DNA of 64,000 bases from Escherichia coli (GCF_003991155.1 NZ_CP031293.1), one strand, 5' to 3'. Positions 3,007 to 61,312 are shown, counted from the first letter of the stretch. Numbers and translations are program-made. Notes: a model not told the origin generated them from the sequence alone.

Positions 3007-3013
3007 GGTTAGC

Positions 3014-3037
3014 GGCCCTCTTAGTGGGAAGAGGGCC
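3014..3037. terminator. hairpin between the convergent ggt and yrhB 3' ends
   Basis: Perfect 9-bp inverted repeat ggccctctt / aagagggcc with a 6-nt loop; no clear U-tract, so terminator function is inferred from position only. Confidence 0.4.
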
Positions 3038-3043
3038 GTATTG

Positions 3044-3328
3044 TCAGGGCAAGCCGAAGGTAGCCTTTTTTATTTCATAATCCTGTAGATATTCTTCCAG
3101 TGGCTTTGCCGTTCCCAGAGAATGAATTTCACCACTGCCTTTATCAATAATAAAAGGTGCGTTACCAGCTAAGCGCGCGGCCTCATCTCCAGATTCAAGA
3201 AATTATTGTGATTCGAAACAGAAATACCAGCCCTGGCTAAAACGTCCATGCAGAGTGATGACGACAGGGAGATCTGCATCATCAAGGTAATGGTTCGCTT
3301 TCGCGAATGCGTCGTGATAAGTAATCAT
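3044..3328 (-). pseudogene. yrhB: yrhB-like small protein gene interrupted by an in-frame TAA at codon 42
   Basis: Minus-strand ATG at 3328 gives MITYHDAFAKANHYLDDADLPVVITLHGRFSQGWYFCFESQ, then TAA at 3203-3205; the same frame stays open for 52 more codons (FLESGDEAARLAGNAPFIIDKGSGEIHSLGTAKPLEEYLQDYEIKKATFGLP) to a stop at 3044-3046. Total length equals the 94-codon yrhB as I recall it. Confidence 0.5.
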
Positions 3329-3777
3329 AATTATAATAAATATTATTGTTGATCGTTATATTATTATTCTTGCGTTATACTTTGAGAAAAGACGCGTTCA
3401 TCTTCGTCAAAGATATTATTAAATGCTGGTTTTGAAAAAAGTTCATCGGGTAATATACAGTCACGAAATAAGTATCTGCTAATGTTTTGTGATTTCTTTT
3501 TCAGAACGTCGAACGGGATTTTCTTATTTAAGATATCAGAATCTTATGATTCGGGTGAAATTCTAACTAAATCAACATGTCACTAAAATCATCATAGCCA
3601 TTAGCTATTTCGGCTAAAATAGAGATTACATGTCTTCGGTCCATCTCACTTAAGGAGTGTAGTTCCGTTGTAAGTTTTTCCATAGCTTGCATTGCTAAGT
3701 TTCGAACAAGGAATTTTCTGCTGGTAATCTCTAAAAAGATGGCATGGTTTATAATGATTTTTGTTACCTTTTGATTA

Positions 3778-4272
3778 TTATGAACAACTGTCCATGATTT
3801 CGTTTAAGAATGAAGAGAAATCACTAAACGAACTGAATATATTTTCTGTGCCAATATTATCTCTAATTTCAAAAAAGTTATTTTTAATGTCATAAGTAAA
3901 TATTGAAATGCTATCATCCCCGATCACTAACCGTTCTTGTAGATCAGGGTTTATGAAATCATCATTATTTCTATAAAATTCATTTACGGCAAAAAGGTTT
4001 TTAACTGAAGGTTCTGGAATCGAGAGGCTGAATAATCGTAATCCATTAACTTCGAATCCATCCATTGCTCTTAAAAAAGTAAGATAATCAGGTTGATTAT
4101 TAAAGAGAATACTAACTTCATTACATAACTTCTCCAGGCAATTAGTTGGATTAGAATTAAATTTTATTTGGATTATACTTTCAATAAATGATTCCTTGAG
4201 CGGTGCTTCAAATGGATAGTCTAAATCATTCATCATTTTTTTTAATTTATTTATTTGGGTTTTAGTCATCAT
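3778..4272 (-). CDS. hypothetical 164-aa protein; candidate cognate immunity protein for the YhhZ HNH toxin (occupies the yrhA position)
   Basis: ORF immediately downstream of yhhZ on the same strand with a 4-nt ATGA start/stop overlap (4269-4272); AT-rich, acidic, no signal peptide. The immunity role is inferred from synteny and coupling only. Confidence 0.6.
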   Translation of the reverse strand: MMTKTQINKLKKMMNDLDYPFEAPLKESFIESIIQIKFNSNPTNCLEKLCNEVSILFNNQPDYLTFLRAMDGFEVNGLRLFSLSIPEPSVKNLFAVNEFYRNNDDFINPDLQERLVIGDDSISIFTYDIKNNFFEIRDNIGTENIFSSFSDFSSFLNEIMDSCS

Positions 4273-5447
4273 TTTGTGGGTTCCATAATATTTTTCATGG
4301 GAGGATAAATTGAGCCAGATGGAATGGCCCAGGGAGTGATTTTGCTTTCACCTACTAATATTCCCTTAGCTATTCGTGATTGCATGTTAGTAAAAACTTT
4401 ATGATATGGTTCGTTTTCGATTAATACTAAATTTTCGAAATCATTAGTACCACCATCATCTAGAGATAGTTTATGGTGAACATTATAATTTAGAGGAACA
4501 TTGCCCTTTCTCATTCTTAAAAGGTCTTCGGCGTTGAATCTTCCAGATGCTTCGGAGGTTTTTGCAAGTTTGATAAGAAAATTTTTTCTTACAGTTTTAT
4601 TAAACTCCTTTCGTAAGTTAGCTAAGTCTTTTGAAGGTCTCTTAATGTATATTATTTCTATTATGTCTATACCATCAAGAAGTTTTTGTTGACCTCTAAG
4701 TTTGCCTAAGTAACTATTTATTTCTGTATATGTATCAACATTAGAACGCTTTGTTAAAAGAATAGATGCTGTTGCTATCGCTATGCCCGCTGTTTTTTCA
4801 TTTAGTATTTGATCATAGCCTTTTATTGCATCTCCACCCAGTTTTTCCGCAGTATCTCTGAATCCTTCAATGTTCCCATTGTATACGCCACCAGCAGCAA
4901 GTAGCCTGCCAATAGCTTTGCTGTTTAACGTTTTGAAACGATTATTTGTTTGGTTTTTTGAATTTGGTAAAAACAAACAGTTATAATTTTCAGGGAGTGC
5001 CAAATAGCTGAACTCGGTATTTGCGATAATCTGTTGACAGAGGATAAATTCATAACTAACAGTTATTGTTTCTGTATCCAGTTGATTTTCAATGATCTGA
5101 TGATGAATAGCCGATAAAAAAGCGCCTCTTAGTTGTATATAATAATACTTTTCCCATCTACCAAATCTATTTATTCGATAGAAGTCAAATCCCATAAATA
5201 ATTGTTCATTATTGTTAATGGAATTAATAAATAATGGAGTGCTTTTATCAATTAATTTACAAAATGTTATACCATGGAACTGTGAACCAAGCCCCGTATT
5301 AGTAATACTATTTAAGAGTGAGAATGTAAATATTTCATCCTCATGCCCGCTCTGCCAGCGATTACCTGTAGACTCAGAAGTCCCACAACCTGCGGAGATG
5401 CTTCCTTGTTGTTCTCCCGTTACTGTCAGGTAAACAATATTACTCAT
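4269..5447 (-). CDS. yhhZ: Hcp-family protein with a C-terminal HNH nuclease domain (Hcp extended-toxin type, YhhZ)
   Basis: 392 aa; the N-terminal ~160 aa look Hcp1-like (MSNIVYLTVTGEQQGSISAG...), and the C-terminus carries an HNH-like motif (NYNVHHKLSLDDGGTNDFENLVLIENEPYHKVF); markedly AT-rich compared with its neighbours. Confidence 0.8.
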   Translation of the reverse strand: MSNIVYLTVTGEQQGSISAGCGTSESTGNRWQSGHEDEIFTFSLLNSITNTGLGSQFHGITFCKLIDKSTPLFINSINNNEQLFMGFDFYRINRFGRWEKYYYIQLRGAFLSAIHHQIIENQLDTETITVSYEFILCQQIIANTEFSYLALPENYNCLFLPNSKNQTNNRFKTLNSKAIGRLLAAGGVYNGNIEGFRDTAEKLGGDAIKGYDQILNEKTAGIAIATASILLTKRSNVDTYTEINSYLGKLRGQQKLLDGIDIIEIIYIKRPSKDLANLRKEFNKTVRKNFLIKLAKTSEASGRFNAEDLLRMRKGNVPLNYNVHHKLSLDDGGTNDFENLVLIENEPYHKVFTNMQSRIAKGILVGESKITPWAIPSGSIYPPMKNIMEPTK

Positions 5448-5650
5448 CCCTGAAAAGTCCTTTTATGGCATGCTATTTTATTAATGGCACTATTATGCTT
5501 GTTAATTGTTATTTATTTACTCCAGGAAATTGTAGGCGTATATATTAATAATAAAATATTACACTTTAGGACGTAATTATGAGGTAAATCTCAATATATT
5601 TATTGGGCAAATAAATACATTAAAGGAAGATATGCCGATTTTGAATGACG

Positions 5651-5677
5651 CCCTTTTTCCATCTCAGAAAAAGGGCA
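5651..5677 (-). terminator. hairpin just downstream of yhhY
   Basis: Inverted repeat gcccttttt(c) ... gaaaaagggc lying directly 3' of the yhhY stop on the minus strand. Confidence 0.5.
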
Positions 5678-5682
5678 CTATC

Positions 5683-6171: not shown

Positions 6172-6255
6172 TCCTTTGTCCTCTTTGGGGTAAATGTCCC
6201 TTTCAACATCATTGACTTTCAAATGCGAGTCAAATGCATTTTTTTTGCAAAAAGT

Positions 6256-6293
6256 GTTGGACAAGTGCGAATGAGAATGATTATTATTGTCTT
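6256..6293 (+). promoter_or_regulatory. ryhB promoter with overlapping Fur box
   Basis: -35-like ttggac and -10-like tattat just upstream of the RyhB 5' end; the overlapping gaatgagaatgattattatt resembles the Fur consensus GATAATGATAATCATTATC. Confidence 0.7.
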
Positions 6294-6383
6294 GCGATCA
6301 GGAAGACCCTCGCGGAGAACCTGAAAGCACGACATTGCTCACATTGCTTCCAGTATTACTTAGCCAGCCGGGTGCTGGCTTTT
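6294..6383 (+). ncRNA. ryhB: RyhB small regulatory RNA (Fur-repressed, iron-sparing)
   Basis: Base-for-base match to the RyhB sequence as I recall it (GCGATCAGGAAGACCCTCGCGGAGAACCTGAAAGCACGACATTGCTCACATTGCTTCCAGTATTACTTAGCCAGCCGGGTGCTGGCTTTT), ending in a GC-rich hairpin and U-tract; sits between yhhY and yhhX as in K-12. Confidence 0.95.
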
Positions 6384-6505
6384 TTTTTGATCTTTCGTTT
6401 TCAAATTATCCACGGGAAGTGCTTGTGTTCGTTATGCGCACTCCAGTAGGAACCACGTCCGCTTTGCGCTAAGGTGTAAATAACCCCCTTAAAAAGGACG
6501 AAATC

Positions 6506-7543
6506 ATGGTCATCAACTGCGCCTTTATTGGCTTCGGCAAAAGCACCACCCGTTACCATCTGCCGTATGTACTTAACCGCAAGGATAGCTGGCATGTCGC
6601 GCATATTTTTCGCCGCCATGCGAAGCCGGAAGAACAGGCTCCCATTTACTCTCATATCCATTTCACCAGCGATCTCGACGAAGTGCTAAACGATCCCGAT
6701 GTTAAGCTGGTTGTCGTCTGCACCCACGCGGATAGCCATTTCGAATACGCGAAGCGCGCGCTGGAAGCCGGGAAAAATGTGCTGGTCGAAAAACCGTTCA
6801 CCCCGACGCTTGCCCAGGCGAAGGAGCTGTTTGAGTTGGCGAAAAGCAAAGGGCTGACCGTCACGCCGTATCAGAATCGTCGCTTTGATTCCTGCTTCCT
6901 GACGGCGAAAAAAGCGATTGAAAGCGGTAAGCTGGGAGAGATTGTTGAAGTGGAAAGCCATTTTGACTATTACCGCCCGGTGGCAGAAACCAAACCTGGG
7001 CTGCCGCAGGATGGCGCGTTCTATGGCCTTGGTGTGCATACCCTCGACCAGATTATCTCGCTGTTCGGTCGCCCGGATCACGTCGCTTATGACATCCGCA
7101 GCCTGCGTAATAAAGCCAATCCTGACGACACCTTCGAAGCGCAGCTGTTTTATGGCGATCTAAAAGCCATCGTCAAAACCAGCCATCTGGTGAAAATCGA
7201 TTATCCGAAATTTATCGTTCACGGTAAGAAAGGTTCGTTTATTAAATACGGTATCGACCAGCAGGAAACCAGCCTGAAGGCTAATATTATGCCGGGCGAA
7301 CCGGGATTCGCAGCGGATGATTCGGTCGGTGTGCTGGAGTATGTCAATGACGAGGGCGTGACGGTCAGAGAAGAGATGAAGCCGGAGGTGGGCGATTACG
7401 GGCGCGTTTATGATGCGTTGCATCAAACCATCACCAACGGTGCGCCAAATTACGTCAAGGAATCTGAAGTTCTTACCAATCTGGAAATCCTTGAACGCGG
7501 TTTTGAGCAAGCTTCTCCCTCCACAGTGACTCTCGCGAAGTAA
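6506..7543 (+). CDS. yhhX: Gfo/Idh/MocA-family oxidoreductase YhhX
   Basis: 345-aa ORF with an N-terminal Rossmann dinucleotide-binding motif (AFIGFGKSTTRYHLP). Confidence 0.9.
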   Translation: MVINCAFIGFGKSTTRYHLPYVLNRKDSWHVAHIFRRHAKPEEQAPIYSHIHFTSDLDEVLNDPDVKLVVVCTHADSHFEYAKRALEAGKNVLVEKPFTPTLAQAKELFELAKSKGLTVTPYQNRRFDSCFLTAKKAIESGKLGEIVEVESHFDYYRPVAETKPGLPQDGAFYGLGVHTLDQIISLFGRPDHVAYDIRSLRNKANPDDTFEAQLFYGDLKAIVKTSHLVKIDYPKFIVHGKKGSFIKYGIDQQETSLKANIMPGEPGFAADDSVGVLEYVNDEGVTVREEMKPEVGDYGRVYDALHQTITNGAPNYVKESEVLTNLEILERGFEQASPSTVTLAK

Positions 7544-10249: not shown

Positions 10250-11590
10250 GTGACTACATTAACGCTTGTTTTAACAGCAGTAGGGTCTGTTTTACTGCTG
10301 CTGTTTTTAGTCATGAAGGCGCGTATGCACGCTTTCCTGGCTTTGATGGTGGTGTCCATGGGGGCTGGCCTTTTTTCCGGTATGCCGCTCGATAAAATCG
10401 CAGCGACGATGGAAAAAGGGATGGGAGGCACCCTCGGCTTTCTGGCGGTGGTTGTCGCCCTGGGAGCCATGTTTGGCAAGATCTTACATGAAACCGGCGC
10501 AGTCGATCAGATTGCCGTCAAAATGCTCAAATCCTTCGGTCACAGCCGCGCGCATTATGCCATCGGCCTTGCGGGGCTGGTCTGTGCGCTACCGCTGTTC
10601 TTTGAAGTGGCGATTGTTCTGCTGATTAGCGTTGCTTTCTCAATGGCGCGCCACACCGGTACGAACCTGGTGAAGCTGGTAATCCCATTATTCGCAGGCG
10701 TGGCGGCCGCGGCTGCGTTCCTGGTGCCTGGACCAGCGCCAATGCTGCTGGCATCGCAGATGAACGCCGACTTTGGCTGGATGATCCTGATTGGCCTGTG
10801 TGCGGCAATTCCGGGAATGATTATTGCCGGGCCGCTGTGGGGTAATTTCATCAGCCGCTACGTGGAGCTGCATATTCCTGACGACATCAGCGAACCACAT
10901 CTCGGTGAAGGCAAAATGCCGTCCTTCGGATTCAGCCTGTCGCTGATCCTGTTGCCACTGGTGCTGGTGGGGCTGAAAACCATTGCCGCGCGTTTTGTGC
11001 CAGAAGGCTCTACCGCTTACGAATGGTTCGAGTTTATCGGCCATCCGTTTACCGCGATTCTGGTTGCTTGTCTGGTAGCAATTTATGGCCTGGCAATGCG
11101 TCAGGGTATGCCAAAAGACAAAGTGATGGAGATTTGTGGTCACGCGCTGCAACCGGCGGGGATCATTCTGCTGGTGATTGGTGCAGGCGGCGTGTTCAAA
11201 CAGGTGCTGGTTGACTCTGGTGTCGGTCCGGCACTGGGCGAAGCGTTAACCGGCATGGGCCTGCCGATTGCCATCACCTGCTTCGTGCTGGCAGCTGCAG
11301 TGCGCATCATTCAGGGTTCTGCCACTGTTGCCTGTTTAACGGCGGTGGGACTGGTAATGCCGGTCATTGAACAACTGAACTACTCCGGTGCGCAAATGGC
11401 GGCGCTGTCGATTTGTATCGCCGGTGGTTCGATTGTTGTCAGCCACGTTAACGACGCGGGTTTCTGGTTGTTCGGTAAATTTACCGGCGCGACCGAAGCC
11501 GAAACGCTTAAAACCTGGACCATGATGGAAACCATCCTCGGCACTGTTGGTGCCATCGTTGGGATGATTGCGTTCCAGCTGTTGAGTTAA
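10250..11590 (+). CDS. gntU: low-affinity gluconate:H+ symporter GntU (GTG start)
   Basis: 446-aa polytopic membrane protein of the GntP family; paralogous to gntT in this window. Confidence 0.9.
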   Translation: MTTLTLVLTAVGSVLLLLFLVMKARMHAFLALMVVSMGAGLFSGMPLDKIAATMEKGMGGTLGFLAVVVALGAMFGKILHETGAVDQIAVKMLKSFGHSRAHYAIGLAGLVCALPLFFEVAIVLLISVAFSMARHTGTNLVKLVIPLFAGVAAAAAFLVPGPAPMLLASQMNADFGWMILIGLCAAIPGMIIAGPLWGNFISRYVELHIPDDISEPHLGEGKMPSFGFSLSLILLPLVLVGLKTIAARFVPEGSTAYEWFEFIGHPFTAILVACLVAIYGLAMRQGMPKDKVMEICGHALQPAGIILLVIGAGGVFKQVLVDSGVGPALGEALTGMGLPIAITCFVLAAAVRIIQGSATVACLTAVGLVMPVIEQLNYSGAQMAALSICIAGGSIVVSHVNDAGFWLFGKFTGATEAETLKTWTMMETILGTVGAIVGMIAFQLLS

Positions 11591-11602
11591 TTACTGCGAC
11601 AA

Positions 11603-11628
11603 ATTACTGCGAGCTTGCTCGCAGTAAT
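11603..11628 (+). terminator. gntU terminator hairpin
   Basis: Perfect inverted repeat attactgcgagc / gctcgcagtaat followed by a T-rich tract. Confidence 0.7.
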
Positions 11629-11729
11629 TCATTTCTCTTATCTCCTCTCTTCATCTTTTTGATCTCTCTCGCAAATTTACCTGCTAATAATCCGTTCTAA
11701 TCACTGCCTAAAGATCGCAGGAGATAAAG

Positions 11730-13826
11730 ATGGAAAAGCACGGAGCTGAATTGCTTTTACAGCGGATGTTAGGAAATACCACCGCTACTTTCAGGGAAGG
11801 GCAATGGGAAGCCATAGATGCAGTGGTTAATCAGCGGCGAAAACTGCTGGTTGTACAGCGCACCGGCTGGGGGAAAAGTGCCGTGTACTTCATCGCCAGT
11901 AAAATCTTCCGCGATCGCGGCGCTGGCCCGACAATTATCATCTCTCCTTTGCTTGCCCTGATGCGTAACCAGGTTGCCGCCGCTGAACGGTTAGGTATTA
12001 CGGCTGAAACGTTGAATTCTACAAACAGGGAAGAATGGCAGCGCATTAGCGATAAGTTGCTGCAAGGTGAGGTCGATTGCTTGCTGGTTTCCCCGGAACG
12101 TTTGGCAAACCAGGACTTTATCGAAACGGTTTTATATCCTATAGCCGATCGTATTGGCTTGCTTGTGGTCGACGAGGCGCACTGCATCTCTGATTGGGGC
12201 CACGATTTTCGCCCGGATTACCGACGTATATTAGATATTTTGCGCCAACTGCCTGCGAATACCCCTGTTCTGGGTACAACCGCGACAGCGAATAACCGTG
12301 TTGTTGAGGATATCCGTCAGCAATTGGGTGACATTGTGATTCAGCGTGGAACGCTGGCTCGCGAAAGTTTGGCGCTTGATGCCTTAGTCTTAGGAGAACA
12401 GTCATCCCGTCTGGCATGGTTAGCAACGGTTATCCCTCAGTTTTCCAAATCGGGAATTGTTTATACCCTGACGACTCGCGATGCTGAACTTGTCGCCGAG
12501 TGGTTAAGGAAAAATGGTATCAGTGCATTTGCTTACTACAGCGGCGTGACTTGTGAAGGCGCGGAAGATTCTAATACTGCCAGGGAATATCTGGAGCAGG
12601 CACTGCTGGCAAATAAAATCAAAGTGCTGGTCGCGACGACGGCATTAGGTATGGGGTTTGATAAACCTGATTTAGGTTTCGTCATTCATTATCAGATGCC
12701 GGGGTCTATTGTCGGTTACTACCAACAGGTGGGGCGTGCCGGGCGTGCTATAGATTCCGCAGTTGGCATATTGCTTTGTGGTGGTGAAGACCGCGCTATT
12801 CATCAATTCTTCCGTGAAAGCGCCTTTCCTGCGGAGGCGCAAATTCATGAAATACTCAACGTACTTAGCGAGAATGACGGTCTTACCCTACGAGGCATTG
12901 AACAACGGACGAATCTTCGTTATGGGCAAATAGAAAAAGCACTGAAATTATTGGTAGCGGAAAATCCATCGCCTGTGGTGTATACCGAGAAATTATGGCG
13001 CAGAACTATCGTCAGTTTTTCTCCTGATCATGAACGAATTAACCATTTGATGAATCAGAGAAAAAGTGAGCTGGCAGACGTTGAAAGCTATATCACGACC
13101 AAGGAGTGCAAAATGCAATTTCTGCGCCGTGCACTCGATGAGCCAAGTGCCGAACGTTGTGGTAAATGTAGCAGTTGTCTTCAACATCCGTTATTGTCGC
13201 CCGACATTGATAGCGGCTTACTCCATGCGGCAAATTTATTTATTAAACACGCTGACCTGCCGTTAAATCTCAATAAACAGGTGGCAGCTGGGGCTTTTAC
13301 GCAATACGGATTTAAAGGGAACTTGCCTGCGGGTTTACAAGGATCTACGGGGCGAATCCTTTCTCGTTGGGGAGATTCCGGGTGGGGAAAGCAGGTAGCA
13401 CAGGAGAAAAAAACGGGGCGCTTAAGTGATGAGCTGGTAGAAGCATGTGCGGAAATGGTTTGCCAACGCTGGAATCCGCATCCTGAACCAACCTGGGTAT
13501 GCTGCGTTCCTTCATTAAGGCACCTCGACCTGGTTCCTGATTTTGCCCGGCGACTGGCGGCGAAACTTGGCTTACCTTTTATTGATGCCATTGAAAAAGT
13601 CGTGGACAATCCACCGCAGAAAATGCAGCAAAACCGTTTTCACCAGTGTCAAAATCTCGACGGGGCGTTTGTGATTACCCCTCCTTTGATGCCAGGTCCG
13701 GCGTTGCTGGTTGACGATATCGTGGATTCTGCATGGACGCTGACAGTTCTGACAGCACTGTTACGCAAGGCAGGTTGCCCGACGGTTTATCCTCTTGCCC
13801 TTGCTTCTACCTCGGTAAAAAATTGA
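11730..13826 (+). CDS. RecQ-like superfamily-2 DNA helicase fused to a C-terminal ComF-type phosphoribosyltransferase-like domain (PsyrT/ShosT-like candidate toxin or defence effector)
   Basis: 698 aa; helicase motifs Walker A (RTGWGKSAVY), DEAH in the RecQ-style context VVDEAHCISDWGHDFRPDY, TATA and QQVGRAGR; a Zn-binding Cys cluster (ERCGKCSSC); the last ~150 aa carry a PRPP-binding-like motif ALLVDDIVDSAWTLTVL resembling gntX/ComF MVIVDDVVTTGST. AGGAGA ribosome-binding site before the ATG. Not part of the K-12 gntU-yhgN junction as I recall it. Confidence 0.8.
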   Translation: MEKHGAELLLQRMLGNTTATFREGQWEAIDAVVNQRRKLLVVQRTGWGKSAVYFIASKIFRDRGAGPTIIISPLLALMRNQVAAAERLGITAETLNSTNREEWQRISDKLLQGEVDCLLVSPERLANQDFIETVLYPIADRIGLLVVDEAHCISDWGHDFRPDYRRILDILRQLPANTPVLGTTATANNRVVEDIRQQLGDIVIQRGTLARESLALDALVLGEQSSRLAWLATVIPQFSKSGIVYTLTTRDAELVAEWLRKNGISAFAYYSGVTCEGAEDSNTAREYLEQALLANKIKVLVATTALGMGFDKPDLGFVIHYQMPGSIVGYYQQVGRAGRAIDSAVGILLCGGEDRAIHQFFRESAFPAEAQIHEILNVLSENDGLTLRGIEQRTNLRYGQIEKALKLLVAENPSPVVYTEKLWRRTIVSFSPDHERINHLMNQRKSELADVESYITTKECKMQFLRRALDEPSAERCGKCSSCLQHPLLSPDIDSGLLHAANLFIKHADLPLNLNKQVAAGAFTQYGFKGNLPAGLQGSTGRILSRWGDSGWGKQVAQEKKTGRLSDELVEACAEMVCQRWNPHPEPTWVCCVPSLRHLDLVPDFARRLAAKLGLPFIDAIEKVVDNPPQKMQQNRFHQCQNLDGAFVITPPLMPGPALLVDDIVDSAWTLTVLTALLRKAGCPTVYPLALASTSVKN

Positions 13827-15028
13827 TGAATCTTTCAGCCAATGCACAAGCGACCCTCCTGCTAACCAGCGATTTTTCTCGCGCGGCGGCGAGTGAGTAT
13901 AAACCTCTTAGTAATAGTGAATGGGGGAAGTTTGCATTATGGCTGAAGCACCAACGTATCAGTCCCGCCGATCTTCTGGTGCCGCAACCGCAAGAGAAAC
14001 TTACAGGCTGGAGCGATCCGCGTATTTCTCAGGAGCGTATTCTTGGCTTGCTGGCGCGTGGCCATAGTCTGGCGTTGGCGGTAGATAAGTGGCAACGCGC
14101 CGGTTTATGGATCTTAACCCGCGGAGATGCCGATTATCCCGTTCGCTTGAAAAACCGATTGCGAACGGATGCACCTCCCGTTTTATTTGGCTGCGGGAAT
14201 AAAGCATTACTGCAAGCGGAAGGTATGGCGATTGTTGGCTCGCGAGATGCTCCGACTGCCGATTTGCGCTATACCCAACAACTGGCAGCGAAACTGGCCC
14301 AACAGGGGATTTGCGTTATCTCTGGTGGTGCGCGAGGTATTGATGAATGTGCAATGGCGTCGGCACTGGAGGCCGGGGGAACTGCCGTTGGCGTATTAGC
14401 TGATAGCTTGTTAAAAACGAGTACGTTAGTGAAATGGCGTGAAGGGCTTATAGCAGGCAACCTGGTGTTGATTTCGCCGTTTTACCCAGAGGTACGTTTC
14501 ACCGTCGGCAATGCGATGGCGCGAAATAAATATATTTATTGCCTTGCTGAAAGCGCAATGGTTGTACGTGCGGGAATGACCGGTGGAACGATAACCGGAG
14601 CGATGGAGGCGTTAAAACATCAGTGGCTGCCTGTGCAGGTTAAACCAAATCAGGATGTGCAATCAGCCAATTCACGATTAGTAGAAAATGGGGCGTCATG
14701 GAGTGCTGAACAGGCTGAGAATGTGACGATCAGACTGCCAGACGTTCCTGGGCTGATGTATGACAGAGCACTCCGTAACGCTCAACCAGAATTGTTTTCG
14801 CTGCACGAAGATGACGCAAATTACGCAGTGATGCCCTCGCATACCCCTGTCGATTTTTATCAACTTTTTGTGGCGGAACTGGCGATCCTTGCAAAGGAAT
14901 CGATAAGTATTGAAAGGCTGGCGTCTTGTACTGGTTTAACCATCGAACAAATTAGTGTGTGGCTGAACCGCGCAGAAGAAGAGGGAAGGGTTATCCGATT
15001 GGGCGAAGGTCATTATCAGTTCAGGTAA
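13826..15028 (+). CDS. DprA/Smf-like Rossmann-fold DNA-processing protein (PsyrA/ShosA-like candidate antitoxin or partner)
   Basis: 400 aa from the ATG at 13826, which overlaps the upstream TGA (TGATG, translational coupling); DprA signature (MAIVGSRDAPTADLRY ... VISGGARGIDECAMASALEAGG) and a C-terminal winged-helix-like tail; the track's longer ORF from 13733 is an in-frame extension into the upstream gene. Confidence 0.8.
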   Translation: MNLSANAQATLLLTSDFSRAAASEYKPLSNSEWGKFALWLKHQRISPADLLVPQPQEKLTGWSDPRISQERILGLLARGHSLALAVDKWQRAGLWILTRGDADYPVRLKNRLRTDAPPVLFGCGNKALLQAEGMAIVGSRDAPTADLRYTQQLAAKLAQQGICVISGGARGIDECAMASALEAGGTAVGVLADSLLKTSTLVKWREGLIAGNLVLISPFYPEVRFTVGNAMARNKYIYCLAESAMVVRAGMTGGTITGAMEALKHQWLPVQVKPNQDVQSANSRLVENGASWSAEQAENVTIRLPDVPGLMYDRALRNAQPELFSLHEDDANYAVMPSHTPVDFYQLFVAELAILAKESISIERLASCTGLTIEQISVWLNRAEEEGRVIRLGEGHYQFR

Positions 15029-15030
15029 TA

Positions 15031-15068
15031 AAACAGGTGCCGCCTCTGGTTGTGTGCAGCACCTGTTT
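15031..15068. terminator. hairpin between the island and the yhgN 3' end
   Basis: Inverted repeat aaacaggtgc ... gcacctgttt with an 18-nt loop, between the DprA-like stop and the yhgN stop. Confidence 0.45.
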
Positions 15069-15073
15069 GAACC

Positions 15074-15667
15074 TTACCCTTTCATCCACATTCGAATGCC
15101 GTCGAGGAACATCTGGGTTGCCATCATCACCAGAATCAATCCCATCAGGCGTTCAAGTGCATTCACCCCTTTCTCGCCCAGCAGACGTAAAAATAGCGAA
15201 GACTGTAGCAGGATAACAAAGGTGCCACCCCAGGCCAGCAGCAGAGCAATTACCAGATGTCCCATCTGATTCGGGTACTGATGAGACAACAACATCAGCG
15301 TGGCGAGAATAGTCGGCCCGGCGACTAACGGAATTGCCAACGGCACGATAAACGGCTCTTCACCTGCCGGAAGCCCGCTGCTATTTCCTGAAGCGCTGGG
15401 GAAAATCATCTTAATGGCGATCAGAAACAGAATGATGCCGCCAGAAATGGAGACGGTTTCTGCTCGCAGGCTGAGAAATGCCAGAATTTTCTCACCCGCA
15501 AACAGGAACACCAGCATCACCAGGAGAGCAATAAGCAACTCCCGCACCATGATTGCCCGCCGTCTTTTCGGTTCAGTATGTTTCAGTACGGACATGAAAA
15601 TAGGTAGGTTTCCGAGCGGATCCATAATCAGGATCAATAAAACTGCTGCAGAAATGATTTCATTCAT
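15074..15667 (-). CDS. yhgN: MarC-family inner-membrane protein YhgN
   Basis: 197-aa hydrophobic protein (MNEIISAAVLLILIMDPLGNLPIF...), typical of the UPF0056/MarC family. Confidence 0.9.
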   Translation of the reverse strand: MNEIISAAVLLILIMDPLGNLPIFMSVLKHTEPKRRRAIMVRELLIALLVMLVFLFAGEKILAFLSLRAETVSISGGIILFLIAIKMIFPSASGNSSGLPAGEEPFIVPLAIPLVAGPTILATLMLLSHQYPNQMGHLVIALLLAWGGTFVILLQSSLFLRLLGEKGVNALERLMGLILVMMATQMFLDGIRMWMKG

Positions 15668-56802: not shown

Positions 56803-58871
<2,069 letters not shown>

Positions 58872-58876
58872 ATAAA

Positions 58877-58904
58877 ACGGGAGGTGAAGGTGCCTCCCGT
58901 TTTT
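58877..58904. terminator. envZ terminator, shared with the convergent antitoxin gene
   Basis: acgggagg tgaaggtg cctcccgt followed by TTTT; the minus-strand antitoxin stop codon (58903-58905) abuts the T-run. Confidence 0.7.
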
Positions 58905-59199
58905 AGATTGTTTTCAATTGATTGATAATGAAAGGATTCGCTTGCAAAAGCAGGAGCAATTTTCGGGGTGCTCCGGTAGGCTGACGGCGTTTGGTTTCCC
59001 AGCTTTTGACCAGGTCATAACTTACCCCTACGGCGACAGCAAAATCTTGCTGACGTAAACCCGTTGCTTCACGGATCGCTTTTACATCGATTTCGCTAAA
59101 AGTATGGACGTGCTCTGGTTCTGGCGTTTCTTCACCCTTTTCGATGCGTACCATTTCTTCTGCGCTGGCAAGAAGATCAGCAAATAATTCATCTTTCAT
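58903..59199 (-). CDS. HigA-like antitoxin (XRE-type helix-turn-helix DNA-binding protein)
   Basis: 98 aa; helix-turn-helix segment (IREATGLRQQDFAVAVGVSYDLVKSWETKRRQPTGAPRKLL) typical of HigA/NadS-type antitoxins; 58 bp downstream of the toxin gene on the same strand. Confidence 0.75.
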   Translation of the reverse strand: MKDELFADLLASAEEMVRIEKGEETPEPEHVHTFSEIDVKAIREATGLRQQDFAVAVGVSYDLVKSWETKRRQPTGAPRKLLLLLQANPFIINQLKTI

Positions 59200-59257
59200 C
59201 TGTTTTCAATGCCTCCGTTGACATTTCGGCCATGGTGGAATTTGTGGAGCTTCAACA

Positions 59258-59575
59258 TTAAAGCAGCTTCTCGGACAATAGTTTCAATGCCTTTCTTTGT
59301 TCTTCTGTTAAATCATCCTGTTCATTTTTAGGATAAATCAACGCCAGATAAATTCGGCCATTGCGTGTTACGTTGTAATAAATTATCCGAATGCCACCCC
59401 GTTTCCCCATTCCAGAACGGTTCCAGCGAATTTTTCTAAAACTGCCTGTGCCTGCGATAATGTCACCGGCAGTGGGATCTTGAATGAGTAGTTCCTGAAA
59501 AGCCCGGAACTCATCATCAGGTAGCAATAACTGGCGGCGTTTGCTAAATCCTTGTAGTTCAATAAAGGTGAACAT
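59258..59575 (-). CDS. HigB-like toxin (RelE/ParE superfamily mRNA interferase)
   Basis: 105 aa with the GTG-x-R-K-I-R ... G-K-R-G-G-x-R-I-I-Y-Y ... L-x-x-I-Y-x-K-N-E motif (GSFRKIRWNRSGMGKRGGIRIIYY, LALIYPKNEQDDLT) that I associate with Vibrio-type HigB toxins; toxin-first gene order is characteristic of HigBA. Absent from the K-12 envZ-pckA junction as I recall it. Confidence 0.75.
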   Translation of the reverse strand: MFTFIELQGFSKRRQLLLPDDEFRAFQELLIQDPTAGDIIAGTGSFRKIRWNRSGMGKRGGIRIIYYNVTRNGRIYLALIYPKNEQDDLTEEQRKALKLLSEKLL

Positions 59576-59639
59576 AATGCATCCTGCGGTCTATTGATAA
59601 TTATAAGTGTACCGTGTACATATTGGTAGCTAATTAGAT

Positions 59640-59670
59640 AAAAAAACCCCTTATCCGTTTGGATAAGGGG
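59640..59670 (-). terminator. pckA terminator
   Basis: Hairpin ccccttatcc gttt ggataagggg preceded on the plus strand by A7 (a U-tract on the minus-strand transcript). Confidence 0.75.
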
Positions 59671-59689
59671 TCAATGAGATATCAGCTGA

Positions 59690-61312
59690 TTACAGCTTAG
59701 GACCTGCCGCTACCAGCGCGGCACCCGCAGGGGTGTCGGTGTATTTATCAAAGTTGTCGATAAACAGTTTCGCCAGGGTTTCGGCTTTTTCCTGCCACTG
59801 TTCCGGGGAAGCGTAGGTGTTACGCGGATCGAGGATCTTCGTGTCTACGCCCGGCAGTTCGGTTGGGATCGCCAGGTTAAACATCGGCAGAGTGAAGGTT
59901 TCTGCGTTATCCAGCGAACCGTTGAGGATGGCGTCGATAATGGCGCGGGTATCTTTAATCGAGATACGTTTGCCAGTGCCGTTCCAGCCGGTGTTAACCA
60001 GATACGCCTGCGCGCCTGCCGCCTGCATACGTTTCACCAGCACTTCTGCGTACTGAGTTGGGTGCAGCGACAGGAATGCCGCGCCGAAGCAGGCGGAGAA
60101 GGTTGGCGTCGGTTCGGTGATGCCGCGCTCTGTACCAGCCAGTTTGGCGGTGAAGCCAGAGAGGAAGTGGTACTGGGTTTGATCGGCAGTCAGACGAGAA
60201 ACCGGCGGCAGCACGCCGAAAGCATCAGCAGTCAGGAAGATAACCTTAGTTGCGTGGCCCGCTTTGGACACCGGCTTAACGATGTTTTCAATGTGATAGA
60301 TAGGATAAGAAACGCGGGTGTTCTCGGTTTTTGAACCATCATCAAAGTCGATAGAACCATCTTCACGCACGGTGACGTTTTCCAGCAGCGCATCACGACG
60401 GATAGCGTTGTAGATTTCAGGTTCCGCTTCTTTCGACAGCTTGATAGTTTTTGCGTAGCAGCCGCCTTCAAAGTTAAACACGCCGTCATCGTCCCAGCCG
60501 TGTTCGTCATCGCCAATCAGGCGACGTTTCGGGTCGGTGGAAAGGGTGGTTTTACCGGTGCCGGAAAGGCCGAAGAACACCGCAACATCGCCTTTCTCAC
60601 CAACGTTGGCGGAGCAGTGCATAGAAGCGATACCTTTCAGCGGCAGCAGGTAGTTCATCATTGAGAACATCCCTTTCTTCATTTCGCCGCCGTACCAGGT
60701 GCCGCCAATCAGCTGCATGCGCTCGGTCAGGTTAAACGCCACGAAGTTTTCGGAGTTCAGACCCTGTTCTTTCCACTGCGGGTTAGTGCACTTCGCGCCG
60801 TTCATAACGATAAAGTCTGGTTTGAAACCTGCCAGCTCTTCATCGCTCGGGCGAATAAACATGTTTTTGACAAAATGCGCCTGCCAGGCCACTTCGGTGA
60901 TGAAACGGACGGAAAGACGAGTATCCGGGTTCGCACCACAGAAAGCGTCGACAACGAACAGACGTTTGCCGGAAAGCTGTTTGGTCACCAGGCCTTTAAG
61001 ATGCTGCCAGGTTTCCGGAGAGAGAGGTTTGTTGTCGTTCTTACCTTTGCCTTTGTCTGCCCACCAGAAAGTATCGCGAGTGGTATCGTCACGGACGATA
61101 TACTTATCTTTTGGTGAACGACCGGTGAAGATCCCGGTATCGACGGCAACGGCACCCAGATTAGTTAACACCCCGCGCTCATAACCTGTCAGGCTCGGAT
61201 CGAGCTCTTCCTGATACAGCAGGTCGTAGCTTGGGTTGTAAACGATATCATGTACGTCACTGATACCATAAGCCTCGAGTTCTTGCGGGGTCAAACCATT
61301 GTTAACGCGCAT
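59690..61312 (-). CDS. pckA: phosphoenolpyruvate carboxykinase (ATP)
   Basis: 540 aa starting [20 protein letters not shown] with the kinase P-loop ([11 protein letters not shown]); the track's ORF is 23 codons longer. Confidence 0.95.

Follow-up and report, generated by a model that had tools for sequence, protein, structure and literature searches.

PsyrTA has been equated with RqlHI, and a mechanism has been given for it in the literature (Sberro 2013; Russell & Mulvey 2015, PMC4670107; Millman 2022). The system has already been characterised in ExPEC, where RqlI was described as having an HTH domain and as binding the toxin, thereby neutralising it (Russell & Mulvey 2015, PMC4670107); co-transcription of rqlH and rqlI was demonstrated in F11. 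PsyrTA systems can confer protection against phages (Millman 2022), and for the native PsyrTA of E. coli NILS69 phage protection was undetectable. The occurrence of PsyrTA between gntU and yhgN has likewise been tabulated, with the entries MGE 'None' and hotspot 'No' (Hochhauser et al. 2023, S3 Table, PMC10121019). As both the PsyrTA cargo and its MGE-free gntU-yhgN position were already known, they add little as a discovery; what is new in the present analysis is the replacement of one allele by the other from stop to stop, the near-strict two-allele state in 5.4k genomes and the finding of the same two alleles in Citrobacter.

We analysed a window of 64,000 nucleotides of an Escherichia coli chromosome (NZ_CP031293.1), which contains two islands between core genes, one at gntU-yhgN and one at envZ-pckA. 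Judged by its predicted proteins, the cargo at 11591-15073 is the rqlH-rqlI (PsyrTA) toxin-antitoxin/anti-phage operon. Two + strand ORFs lie between gntU and yhgN (11730-13826 and 13826(13733)-15028). [quoted passage not shown] Its helicase core is recognised by Pfam (DEAD, 90 bits; Helicase_C, 53 bits) and by TIGR00614 recQ_fam (252.8 bits, cut-off 219.8). The PRTase domain reaches E 2.3e-4 and 21 bits against PF00156, which is under the cut-off of 26.3; the same domain is precomputed for many homologues. The second ORF, psyrA or rqlI (13826-15028, +), would encode the antitoxin (PADLOC PsyrA, 669.1 bits, HMM positions 1-397 of 398), a protein with a DprA/SLOG domain (PF02481, 171 bits) and a possible C-terminal HTH, for which all matches within the last 80 aa are sub-threshold (best E 0.018). 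The genes are arranged as in a two-gene operon, psyrT preceding psyrA, and overlap by 1 nt at TGATG (13824-13828), which joins the psyrT stop to the psyrA start. PGAP places the start of psyrA at 13733; the start at 13826 is backed by the PsyrA HMM, whose alignment begins at residue 32 of the longer ORF, and by gene calls of 401 aa and 391 aa in Citrobacter and Silvania. PsyrA also lies directly 3' of PsyrT in 72 of 80 distant loci.

The locus resembles RqlH/RqlI of ExPEC: PsyrT and PsyrA are matched over their full length, the first gene codes for a RecQ-like helicase with a probable PRTase-like domain at the C-terminus, the start of the DprA-like gene behind it overlaps, and the system is absent from K-12, as published. 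We found no structural difference between the two. ShosTA shares the DprA/SLOG domain of the antitoxin (the ShosA HMM scores 92 bits against psyrA) and probably a PRTase-type toxin module, but ShosT has no RecQ helicase, and the scores of the PsyrA and PsyrT models are much higher, so that an assignment to ShosTA was rejected in favour of PsyrTA.

The left core flank, gntU (gluconate transporter; 10250-11590, +), and the right one, yhgN (MarC/NAAT family; 15074-15667, -), are convergent, and their stop codons, ending at 11590 and beginning at 15074, form the two boundaries of the allele. As references for the empty site we used the K-12 lineage strains BW25113 and DH1. In these alignments the gntU TAA and the yhgN stop are the exact points at which homology is lost and regained; the spacer is thus swapped as a whole, from stop to stop, with 3483 bp (11591-15073) standing in place of a spacer of 56 bp, the state of 70% of E. 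coli. The preliminary description had read both islands as cargo inserted between preserved terminators of the core genes. The alignments show replacement of the whole spacer at both junctions instead, and a replaced spacer with fixed boundaries was seen in 15 of 15 loci. The four hairpins on which that reading was based do exist, and the folding of each is much more stable than that of shuffled sequence (z = -3.5 to -6.2); three of the four, however, are not preserved core-gene terminators, the hairpin of envZ alone being common to the empty site. At gntU-yhgN, the empty allele has an unrelated 56-bp spacer with a hairpin of its own (CCCGGTAG..CTACCGGG) that is missing from the occupied allele, and hence the hairpins at 11602-11629 and 15031-15068 belong to the cargo allele. 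The former (+ strand, 3' of gntU) is a probable gntU terminator and the latter, between psyrA and yhgN, a probable two-way terminator, both as predicted; as the island's own terminators they would probably keep read-through from passing between gntU, the operon and yhgN. At 11590-11628 (+), ATTACTGCGA occurs three times, twice direct and once inverted, and the last two copies build the left hairpin. Its core, CTGCGAG-N4-CTCGCAG, is kept in the Citrobacter and Silvania islands, and hairpins of other sequence are found there where E. coli has 15031-15068.

The second island lies between envZ (57519-58871, +) and pckA (59690-61312, -, stop at 59690), which are also convergent. The placement between convergent core genes noted earlier holds for both islands; with n=2 it is indistinguishable from chance. 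The shared terminator hairpin of envZ (58874-58903, +) is followed by the occupied spacer of 785 bp (58904-59688; GC 0.43), which stands in place of a 44-bp stretch. The hairpin on the pckA side (59645-59672, -), followed by a T-run, is borne by the cargo, replaces this different 44-bp stretch and is the predicted, probable pckA terminator of the occupied allele; it is partly conserved in Citrobacter. Between the flanks are the genes of a RelE/ParE-superfamily toxin (HigB-2-like; 59258-59575, -) and, 3' of it, a NadS-family HTH antitoxin (58903-59199, -). The antitoxin matches NCBIfam NF041265 with 75 bits (cut-off 60) as well as Pfam HTH_31 and HTH_3, and the toxin passes PF06296 marginally, with 27.6 bits at a cut-off of 27. 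Homologues of the toxin are labelled 'Toxin HigB-2' or RelE/ParE family, and RefSeq names it a RelE/ParE family toxin. The toxin-first order, the protein sizes, the PF06296 toxin, the NadS-family antitoxin and the name HigB-2 given to homologues in Klebsiella all liken the pair to type II TA systems of the HigB-2/HigA-2 type; it differs in that the E. coli toxin barely reaches the Pfam cut-off and that the pair is known here from sequence alone. A candidate operator, GTGTACCGTGTACAT (59607-59621), may serve the pair from a position 5' of the toxin gene, and the same sequence is present in the Citrobacter orthologue.

We then determined the state of both junctions in complete E. coli genomes. 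At gntU-yhgN, 3774 of 5424 genomes were empty, 1641 carried PsyrTA and 9 had other content (30% occupied); at envZ-pckA, the corresponding numbers were 4073 empty, 1324 with the TA pair and 28 other (n=5425; 24% occupied). Two alleles therefore account for 99.8% and 99.5% of the genomes, respectively. The single leftover record that was looked at, one of the 28 at envZ-pckA, is an insertion of ISVsa5. Variation of the junctions within the species had been anticipated in the preliminary description, and it is present; the recurrent hotspots with alternative cargo that had been proposed along with it did not emerge from this pangenome survey. Neither junction is a multi-cargo hotspot, because each has essentially two states in ~5,425 genomes. 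The defence-island hotspots of E. coli (Hochhauser 2023) and the core defence hotspots of Pseudomonas aeruginosa resemble our junctions in their variable occupancy and core-gene flanks, and some hotspot instances likewise have no identifiable mobility genes. They differ in offering many alternative cargoes, usually on MGEs, whereas gntU-yhgN and envZ-pckA hold one cargo or none.

These data bear on the explanation by which both islands are comparatively recent insertions between intact core terminators, brought in by flanking recombination at hotspots that collect varied defence/TA cargo. The occupancies of 30% and 24% and the absence of mobility genes and boundary repeats would fit such a history, as would an Enterobacteriaceae contig (L118) with four extra genes between psyrA and yhgN and the homologous TA pairs that in Klebsiella and Pseudescherichia occupy different core junctions. 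It is at odds with the three hairpins that the empty sites do not have and with the replacement of the whole spacer; no more than 0.2% and 0.5% of the E. coli genomes fall outside the two alleles, the tabulated hotspot entry for gntU-yhgN is 'No' (Hochhauser et al. 2023, PMC10121019), the island haplotypes are deep and match lineage, and Citrobacter has orthologous cargo at both sites, as has Silvania for PsyrTA. For E. coli this explanation is largely refuted, and we consider it unlikely overall.

The closest PsyrT relatives outside E. coli/Shigella (68-74% aa) are all located directly downstream of gntU; they come from Citrobacter freundii, from Silvania hatchlandensis and from three metagenomic contigs. 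Alignment of the Citrobacter locus, the Silvania locus and one JGI contig showed homology of both leader and hairpin. Among more distant PsyrTA loci, gntU/yhgN flanks occurred in 0 of 80. A homologous empty allele of 56 bp also occurs in Citrobacter, on flanks 98.9-99.2% identical to those of an occupied strain. Both gntU-yhgN alleles coexist in one species of the Citrobacter freundii complex, so that the polymorphism probably predates E. coli. At envZ-pckA, the TA pair is orthologous in Citrobacter, the comparison there being one of the occupied allele only. A scan of GTDB representatives with PsyrT had hinted at an acquisition of PsyrTA specific to E. coli: among the matches listed, relatives reached at most 65% and included no Escherichia or Citrobacter. 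The scan covers one genome per species, and the top-scoring relatives among the matches listed were not the E. coli-like ones; a protein search and contig look-ups led us to reject such an acquisition. Between genera, PsyrT and PsyrA share 61-74% aa as compared to 90-98% for the flanking proteins; since the cargo is far more diverged than its flanks, related systems might have been acquired independently at the same site.

Within E. coli, divergence reaches 4.25% nt among island haplotypes, compared with 1-2.6% in the flanks. Islands and flanks give the same division into three lineage groups, and empty strains are found in every group. In our small sample of 13 independent loci, no flank SNP or haplotype was linked to occupancy. 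Divergence between haplotypes is discordant for psyrT and psyrA, and the island haplotypes are mosaic. Seven of 8 loci have kept their ORFs intact, with synonymous changes far exceeding non-synonymous ones; decay is seen in O157:H7, where psyrT is a pseudogene, and in Shigella sonnei, where it is truncated. No switch of allele was observed between near-identical strains, the closest occupied-empty pairs being ~0.6% apart in their flanks. Exchange between strains by homologous recombination in the flanks is the most plausible mechanism. The acquisition by this process that had been suggested earlier stands in part: it is the sole visible route by which allele states could pass between strains, and E. 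coli shows no visible event of acquisition. Citrobacter has orthologous cargo at either site, Silvania has it for PsyrTA, and both gntU-yhgN alleles are present within one Citrobacter species.

Could the empty state have arisen by repeated deletion of the operon from an occupied ancestor? The island at the same site across genera and the decay of psyrT in O157:H7 and Shigella sonnei would be in line with this. However, the 56-bp and 44-bp empty sequences have no counterpart inside the islands, and deletion cannot yield them. The 56-bp spacer, moreover, is homologous between E. coli and Citrobacter and bears lineage-specific SNPs, which identifies it as a single old allele and not as a set of independent scars. 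We regard repeated deletion as very unlikely.

Neither island contains integrase, transposase or recombinase genes; each allele consists of two cargo ORFs only. Terminal inverted repeats and direct or inverted repeats at the boundaries were not found above chance level in either island, and alignments to the empty sites revealed no target-site duplication, att site or recombinase footprint at either junction, in agreement with the absence of mobility genes and repeats reported in the preliminary description. We considered the triple ATTACTGCGA as a target-site duplication and rejected it, there being no copy at the right boundary. Matches to the PsyrTA island in complete E. coli genomes are all chromosomal, with a median of one place per genome (highest 2). 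Searches with PsyrT gave no close copy on plasmids (best 60% aa identical) and no full-length match in phages. PsyrTA at gntU-yhgN is a fixed-position chromosomal locus and not a mobile element: its stop-to-stop boundaries are invariant, it has no boundary repeats, occupies one place per genome and has no close plasmid or phage copies. If an unrecognised recombinase acting in trans had moved site-specific elements, independently into the same sites of Escherichia and Citrobacter, this might account for the precise, invariant boundaries, for a cargo much more diverged between genera than its flanks and for the triple 10-mer that adjoins the left boundary. Such elements would not be expected from an opposite boundary without repeat or target-site duplication, nor from the lack of extra copies and of close plasmid or phage copies. 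In addition, the nearest sequence relatives are exactly those that share the site, with a homologous non-coding leader, and E. coli haplotypes diverge along with lineages. Of all explanations considered, this is the one to which we give the least credence.

In our opinion, PsyrTA is quite probably one of two old alternative alleles of gntU-yhgN, immobile, with a similar situation for the pair at envZ-pckA. The occupied gntU-yhgN allele would have been at its site before Escherichia, Citrobacter and Silvania diverged, and both alleles would still segregate in E. coli (~30:70) and in the Citrobacter freundii-complex species. The HigB-2-like/NadS pair appears to behave alike, with 24% occupancy, two alleles and an occupied allele orthologous in Citrobacter. 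A change of allele state in a strain would take place via homologous recombination in the core genes on either side, and the polymorphism may be kept by addiction or by selection that is balancing or frequency-dependent. The lack of detectable phage protection by native NILS69 PsyrTA counts against this explanation as far as the selective force is concerned. With somewhat less than even confidence, we suggest that both loci are long-lived trans-genus presence/absence polymorphisms, that the gntU-yhgN alleles have been kept since before the Escherichia/Citrobacter split, presumably by balancing or frequency-dependent selection, and that exchange takes place only via flanking homologous recombination. 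If so, they would make up a class of 'immobile' defence/TA loci, apart from the defence islands borne by MGEs, and would offer a clean natural case of a defence/TA locus persisting without a mobile vehicle; this would bear on the upkeep and exchange of the ~10% of E. coli defence systems that lie outside MGE hotspots. In any case, the view of the two islands has to be corrected: they are neither insertions between intact terminators nor hotspots, and represent two-state spacer alleles common to Citrobacter.

Some further features of the two regions were recorded. GC content is unremarkable, which fits an old locus. An Rfam scan of both regions gave nothing at threshold, the sub-threshold matches being driven by the terminator hairpin, and a scan for sigma-70 promoters 5' of psyrT gave no consensus match on the + strand. 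The leader 5' of psyrT contains a conserved block, TTTTTGATYTCT..TCRCAA.

The window is 100% identical to E. coli strain 2016C-3878 and is chromosomal. In it, the spacer between gntU (+ strand, ending at 11590) and yhgN (- strand, stop codon beginning at 15074) measures 3483 bp and holds two ORFs, both on the + strand: the toxin gene psyrT (11730-13826, 698 aa) and the antitoxin gene psyrA (from 13826, 400 aa). At the second junction, between envZ (+ strand, ending at 58871) and pckA (- strand, stop at 59690), a 105-aa toxin gene (59258-59575) is followed by a 98-aa HTH gene (58903-59199), both on the - strand. The anatomy given in the preliminary description, i.e. these flanks, two cargo ORFs each and four hairpins, is largely borne out, and all four hairpins are present (z -3.5 to -6.2 relative to shuffled sequence in folding). 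Mobility genes and obvious repeats are absent, as it had said: no integrase or transposase ORF was found at either island, and no direct or inverted repeats at the boundaries of either exceed chance. The motif ATTACTGCGA occurs three times at 11590-11628 (two direct copies and one inverted), the first copy beginning within the gntU stop codon; no partner was found at the right boundary of the gntU-yhgN island.

A comparison of the occupied gntU-yhgN allele with its empty counterpart in BW25113 shows homology precisely as far as the gntU TAA and then again precisely from the yhgN stop. What lies between in the empty allele is 56 bp of unrelated sequence that forms a hairpin of its own (CCCGGTAG..CTACCGGG). 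Given these limits of homology and the unrelated empty spacer, the hairpins at 11602-11629 and 15031-15068 are part of the occupied allele. The empty and occupied alleles of envZ-pckA have the envZ hairpin (58874-58903) in common; the hairpin on the pckA side comes with the cargo, which takes the place of a different 44-bp stretch. Thus, only one of the four hairpins (envZ) is a preserved core terminator and the other three come with the cargo alleles, contrary to the proposal that core terminators are preserved on both sides. The alignments to the empty sites also contradict a clean insertion between core genes, and the event is a replacement of the whole spacer.

A pangenome survey, suggested in the preliminary description, was run on E. 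coli; both junctions vary, with two main states each. At gntU-yhgN, 1641 of 5424 matched genomes are occupied (with the two-gene cargo), 3774 carry the K-12-type empty spacer and just 9 show another state; the corresponding numbers for envZ-pckA are 1324, 4073 and 28 (5425 genomes matched). With these counts, both are essentially two-state junctions and not the recurrent multi-cargo hotspots that had been suspected. This reading agrees with the S3 Table of Hochhauser, Millman & Sorek 2023, where 'gntU-yhgN' is listed for PsyrTA with hotspot 'No' and MGE 'None' (term counts in the table imply 54 such rows among the 190 finished genomes of that study). The rare third state at envZ-pckA is exemplified by E. 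coli EC7518, one of the 28 other records, with an IS4-like ISVsa5 transposase in the spacer (6255-7463 of the fetched locus L005).

Against the PADLOC models, the psyrT product scores 1061.7 bits with PsyrT (positions 5-687 of 689), and the psyrA product scores 669.1 bits with PsyrA (positions 1-397 of 398). PsyrT contains DEAD and Helicase_C domains, exceeds the recQ_fam threshold and has a below-threshold PRTase match at its C-terminus; PsyrA contains a DprA domain. PsyrTA is alternatively named RqlHI (Millman et al.). In ExPEC F11, rqlH and rqlI form one operon, and RqlH is genotoxic via its PRTase domain and is bound and neutralised by RqlI; MG1655 lacks both genes (Russell & Mulvey, PMC4670107). 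RefSeq/PGAP places the psyrA start at 13733, so that the product has 431 aa and the gene overlaps psyrT by 94 nt. Because the PsyrA HMM alignment begins at residue 32 of this long ORF, and gene calls in Citrobacter and Silvania give 401 and 391 aa, we favour the ATG at 13826, overlapping the psyrT stop (TGATG), as the probable start of the 400-aa product.

The age and inheritance of the gntU-yhgN island were assessed on eight occupied and seven empty E. coli loci, taken together with their flanks (3 kb on the left, 9 kb on the right). All 15 share exactly the same allele boundaries. Nucleotide divergence reaches at most 4.25% between island haplotypes versus 1-2.6% in the flanks, and the three island haplotype groups are the three flank groups, with empty strains inside every one of the latter; ST131 (occupied) and APEC O1 (empty), for instance, are just 0.58% apart. 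Occupied and empty flanks are undifferentiated, including the 500 bp nearest the island, and none of the flank SNPs follows occupancy (permutation p = 0.69). The ORFs are intact in seven of eight islands (the exception being O157:H7, with a truncated psyrT), and their substitutions are mostly synonymous. Across pairs of haplotypes, psyrT and psyrA are discordant in their divergence, a sign of recombination within the island. Its GC content (0.494) is inside the normal range of the window; all copies are chromosomal, at a median of one and a maximum of 2 places per genome. The nearest plasmid PsyrT shows 60% aa identity, and a phage search found no full-length PsyrT copy.

In O157:H7 (ECP17-1298, locus L089 10331-12455; also L003) psyrT is a pseudogene with a frameshift and an internal stop, its first ORF spanning merely 202 aa; the island is 28 bp longer and psyrA is intact, a state that fits the usual decay of TA systems, toxin first. 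In Shigella sonnei, the RecQ-like proteins from the PsyrT protein search (P0002-P0013) are truncated to 593-657 aa and 91-92% identical, fitting what Russell & Mulvey (PMC4670107) reported for S. sonnei 53G, where the helicase and PRTase portions of the coding sequence are separated by inserted elements.

In a scan of GTDB representatives (one genome per species), the matches listed include only PsyrT relatives of at most 65% identity. The protein search retrieved relatives at 68-74%, and all of these that were looked up sit immediately downstream of gntU (gene order gntR-gntK-gntU-psyrT-psyrA). Such gntU-linked contexts number five (Citrobacter freundii, Silvania hatchlandensis and three metagenomic contigs), and in three of them yhgN-asd-glgB follow directly after psyrA. 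At locus L116 no yhgN is called between psyrA and asd, and an Enterobacteriaceae metagenome contig (L118, 8294-11451) has four additional genes between psyrA and yhgN (AIM24, hypothetical, metallophosphoesterase, DUF4440). Among 80 more distant PsyrTA loci, none has gntU-yhgN flanks. Independent site-specific capture in each genus would suit a cargo far more diverged (PsyrT 71-74%, PsyrA 61-63% identity across genera) than its flanks (flanking proteins 90-98%), but is unlikely: it is precisely the same-site copies that are closest in sequence, and these have a homologous leader in common. This non-coding leader can be aligned across Citrobacter, Silvania and contig L106, with the hairpin core CTGCGAG-N4-CTCGCAG (11590-11628 region) retained. 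Citrobacter genomes with an identical YhgN protein also have the empty allele, again 56 bp and homologous to the E. coli spacer, in flanks 98.9-99.2% identical to those of an occupied C. freundii strain. A single Citrobacter species therefore has both alleles, as E. coli does. Two Citrobacter genomes (GCA_945906775.1, L110/L119; GCA_016412205.1, L112/L120) are empty at gntU-yhgN and occupied at envZ-pckA; therefore, the two polymorphisms segregate independently.

The evidence best supports reading gntU-yhgN as a long-standing polymorphism of two states, fixed in its place on the chromosome, with an occupied allele that brings its own terminators. That the empty state arises by recurrent deletion of the operon is unlikely, as empty spacers are single homologous alleles rather than deletion scars. 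Since the two states are not interconvertible by simple insertion or deletion and a recombinase signature is absent, alleles would most plausibly move from strain to strain by homologous recombination within the core genes on either side, a step we infer from the missing allele/flank linkage and the mosaic island haplotypes. Homologous recombination, which the preliminary description had invoked for acquisition, thus stands only as the way in which strains probably exchange alleles, and not as a sign of recent acquisition. Earlier publications already give both the cargo and its MGE-free location; what is added here, the trans-genus two-allele pattern, is modest and provisional.

The envZ-pckA junction looks like the same kind of polymorphism, with only the occupied allele seen in Citrobacter. 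Its toxin belongs to the RelE/ParE superfamily (PF06296, barely at the cut-off) and its antitoxin is a NadS-family HTH protein; as the toxin gene precedes the antitoxin gene and relatives of the toxin carry the name HigB-2, the earlier label 'HigBA-like' is reasonable. An orthologous pair occupies the Citrobacter pckA/envZ site (toxin 82%, antitoxin 96%). Upstream of the toxin gene, GTGTACCGTGTACAT (59607-59621) is identical in the Citrobacter orthologue, the adjoining non-coding sequence having diverged, and is a candidate operator for autoregulation. Homologous TA pairs also occur in Klebsiella variicola and Pseudescherichia vulneris, at different core junctions and with no mobility genes among the genes called.

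A better hotspot candidate than gntU-yhgN or envZ-pckA is the ggt-yhhY junction (~3007-5682 in the window), which is multi-allelic among 15 fetched loci: it holds yrhB-yrhD-yrhA-tssD in the window, K-12 and others (with an additional IS1 in K-12) and a DUF4225 gene in O157:H7, and is without cargo in B2 strains, 2014C-3338 and AST85.
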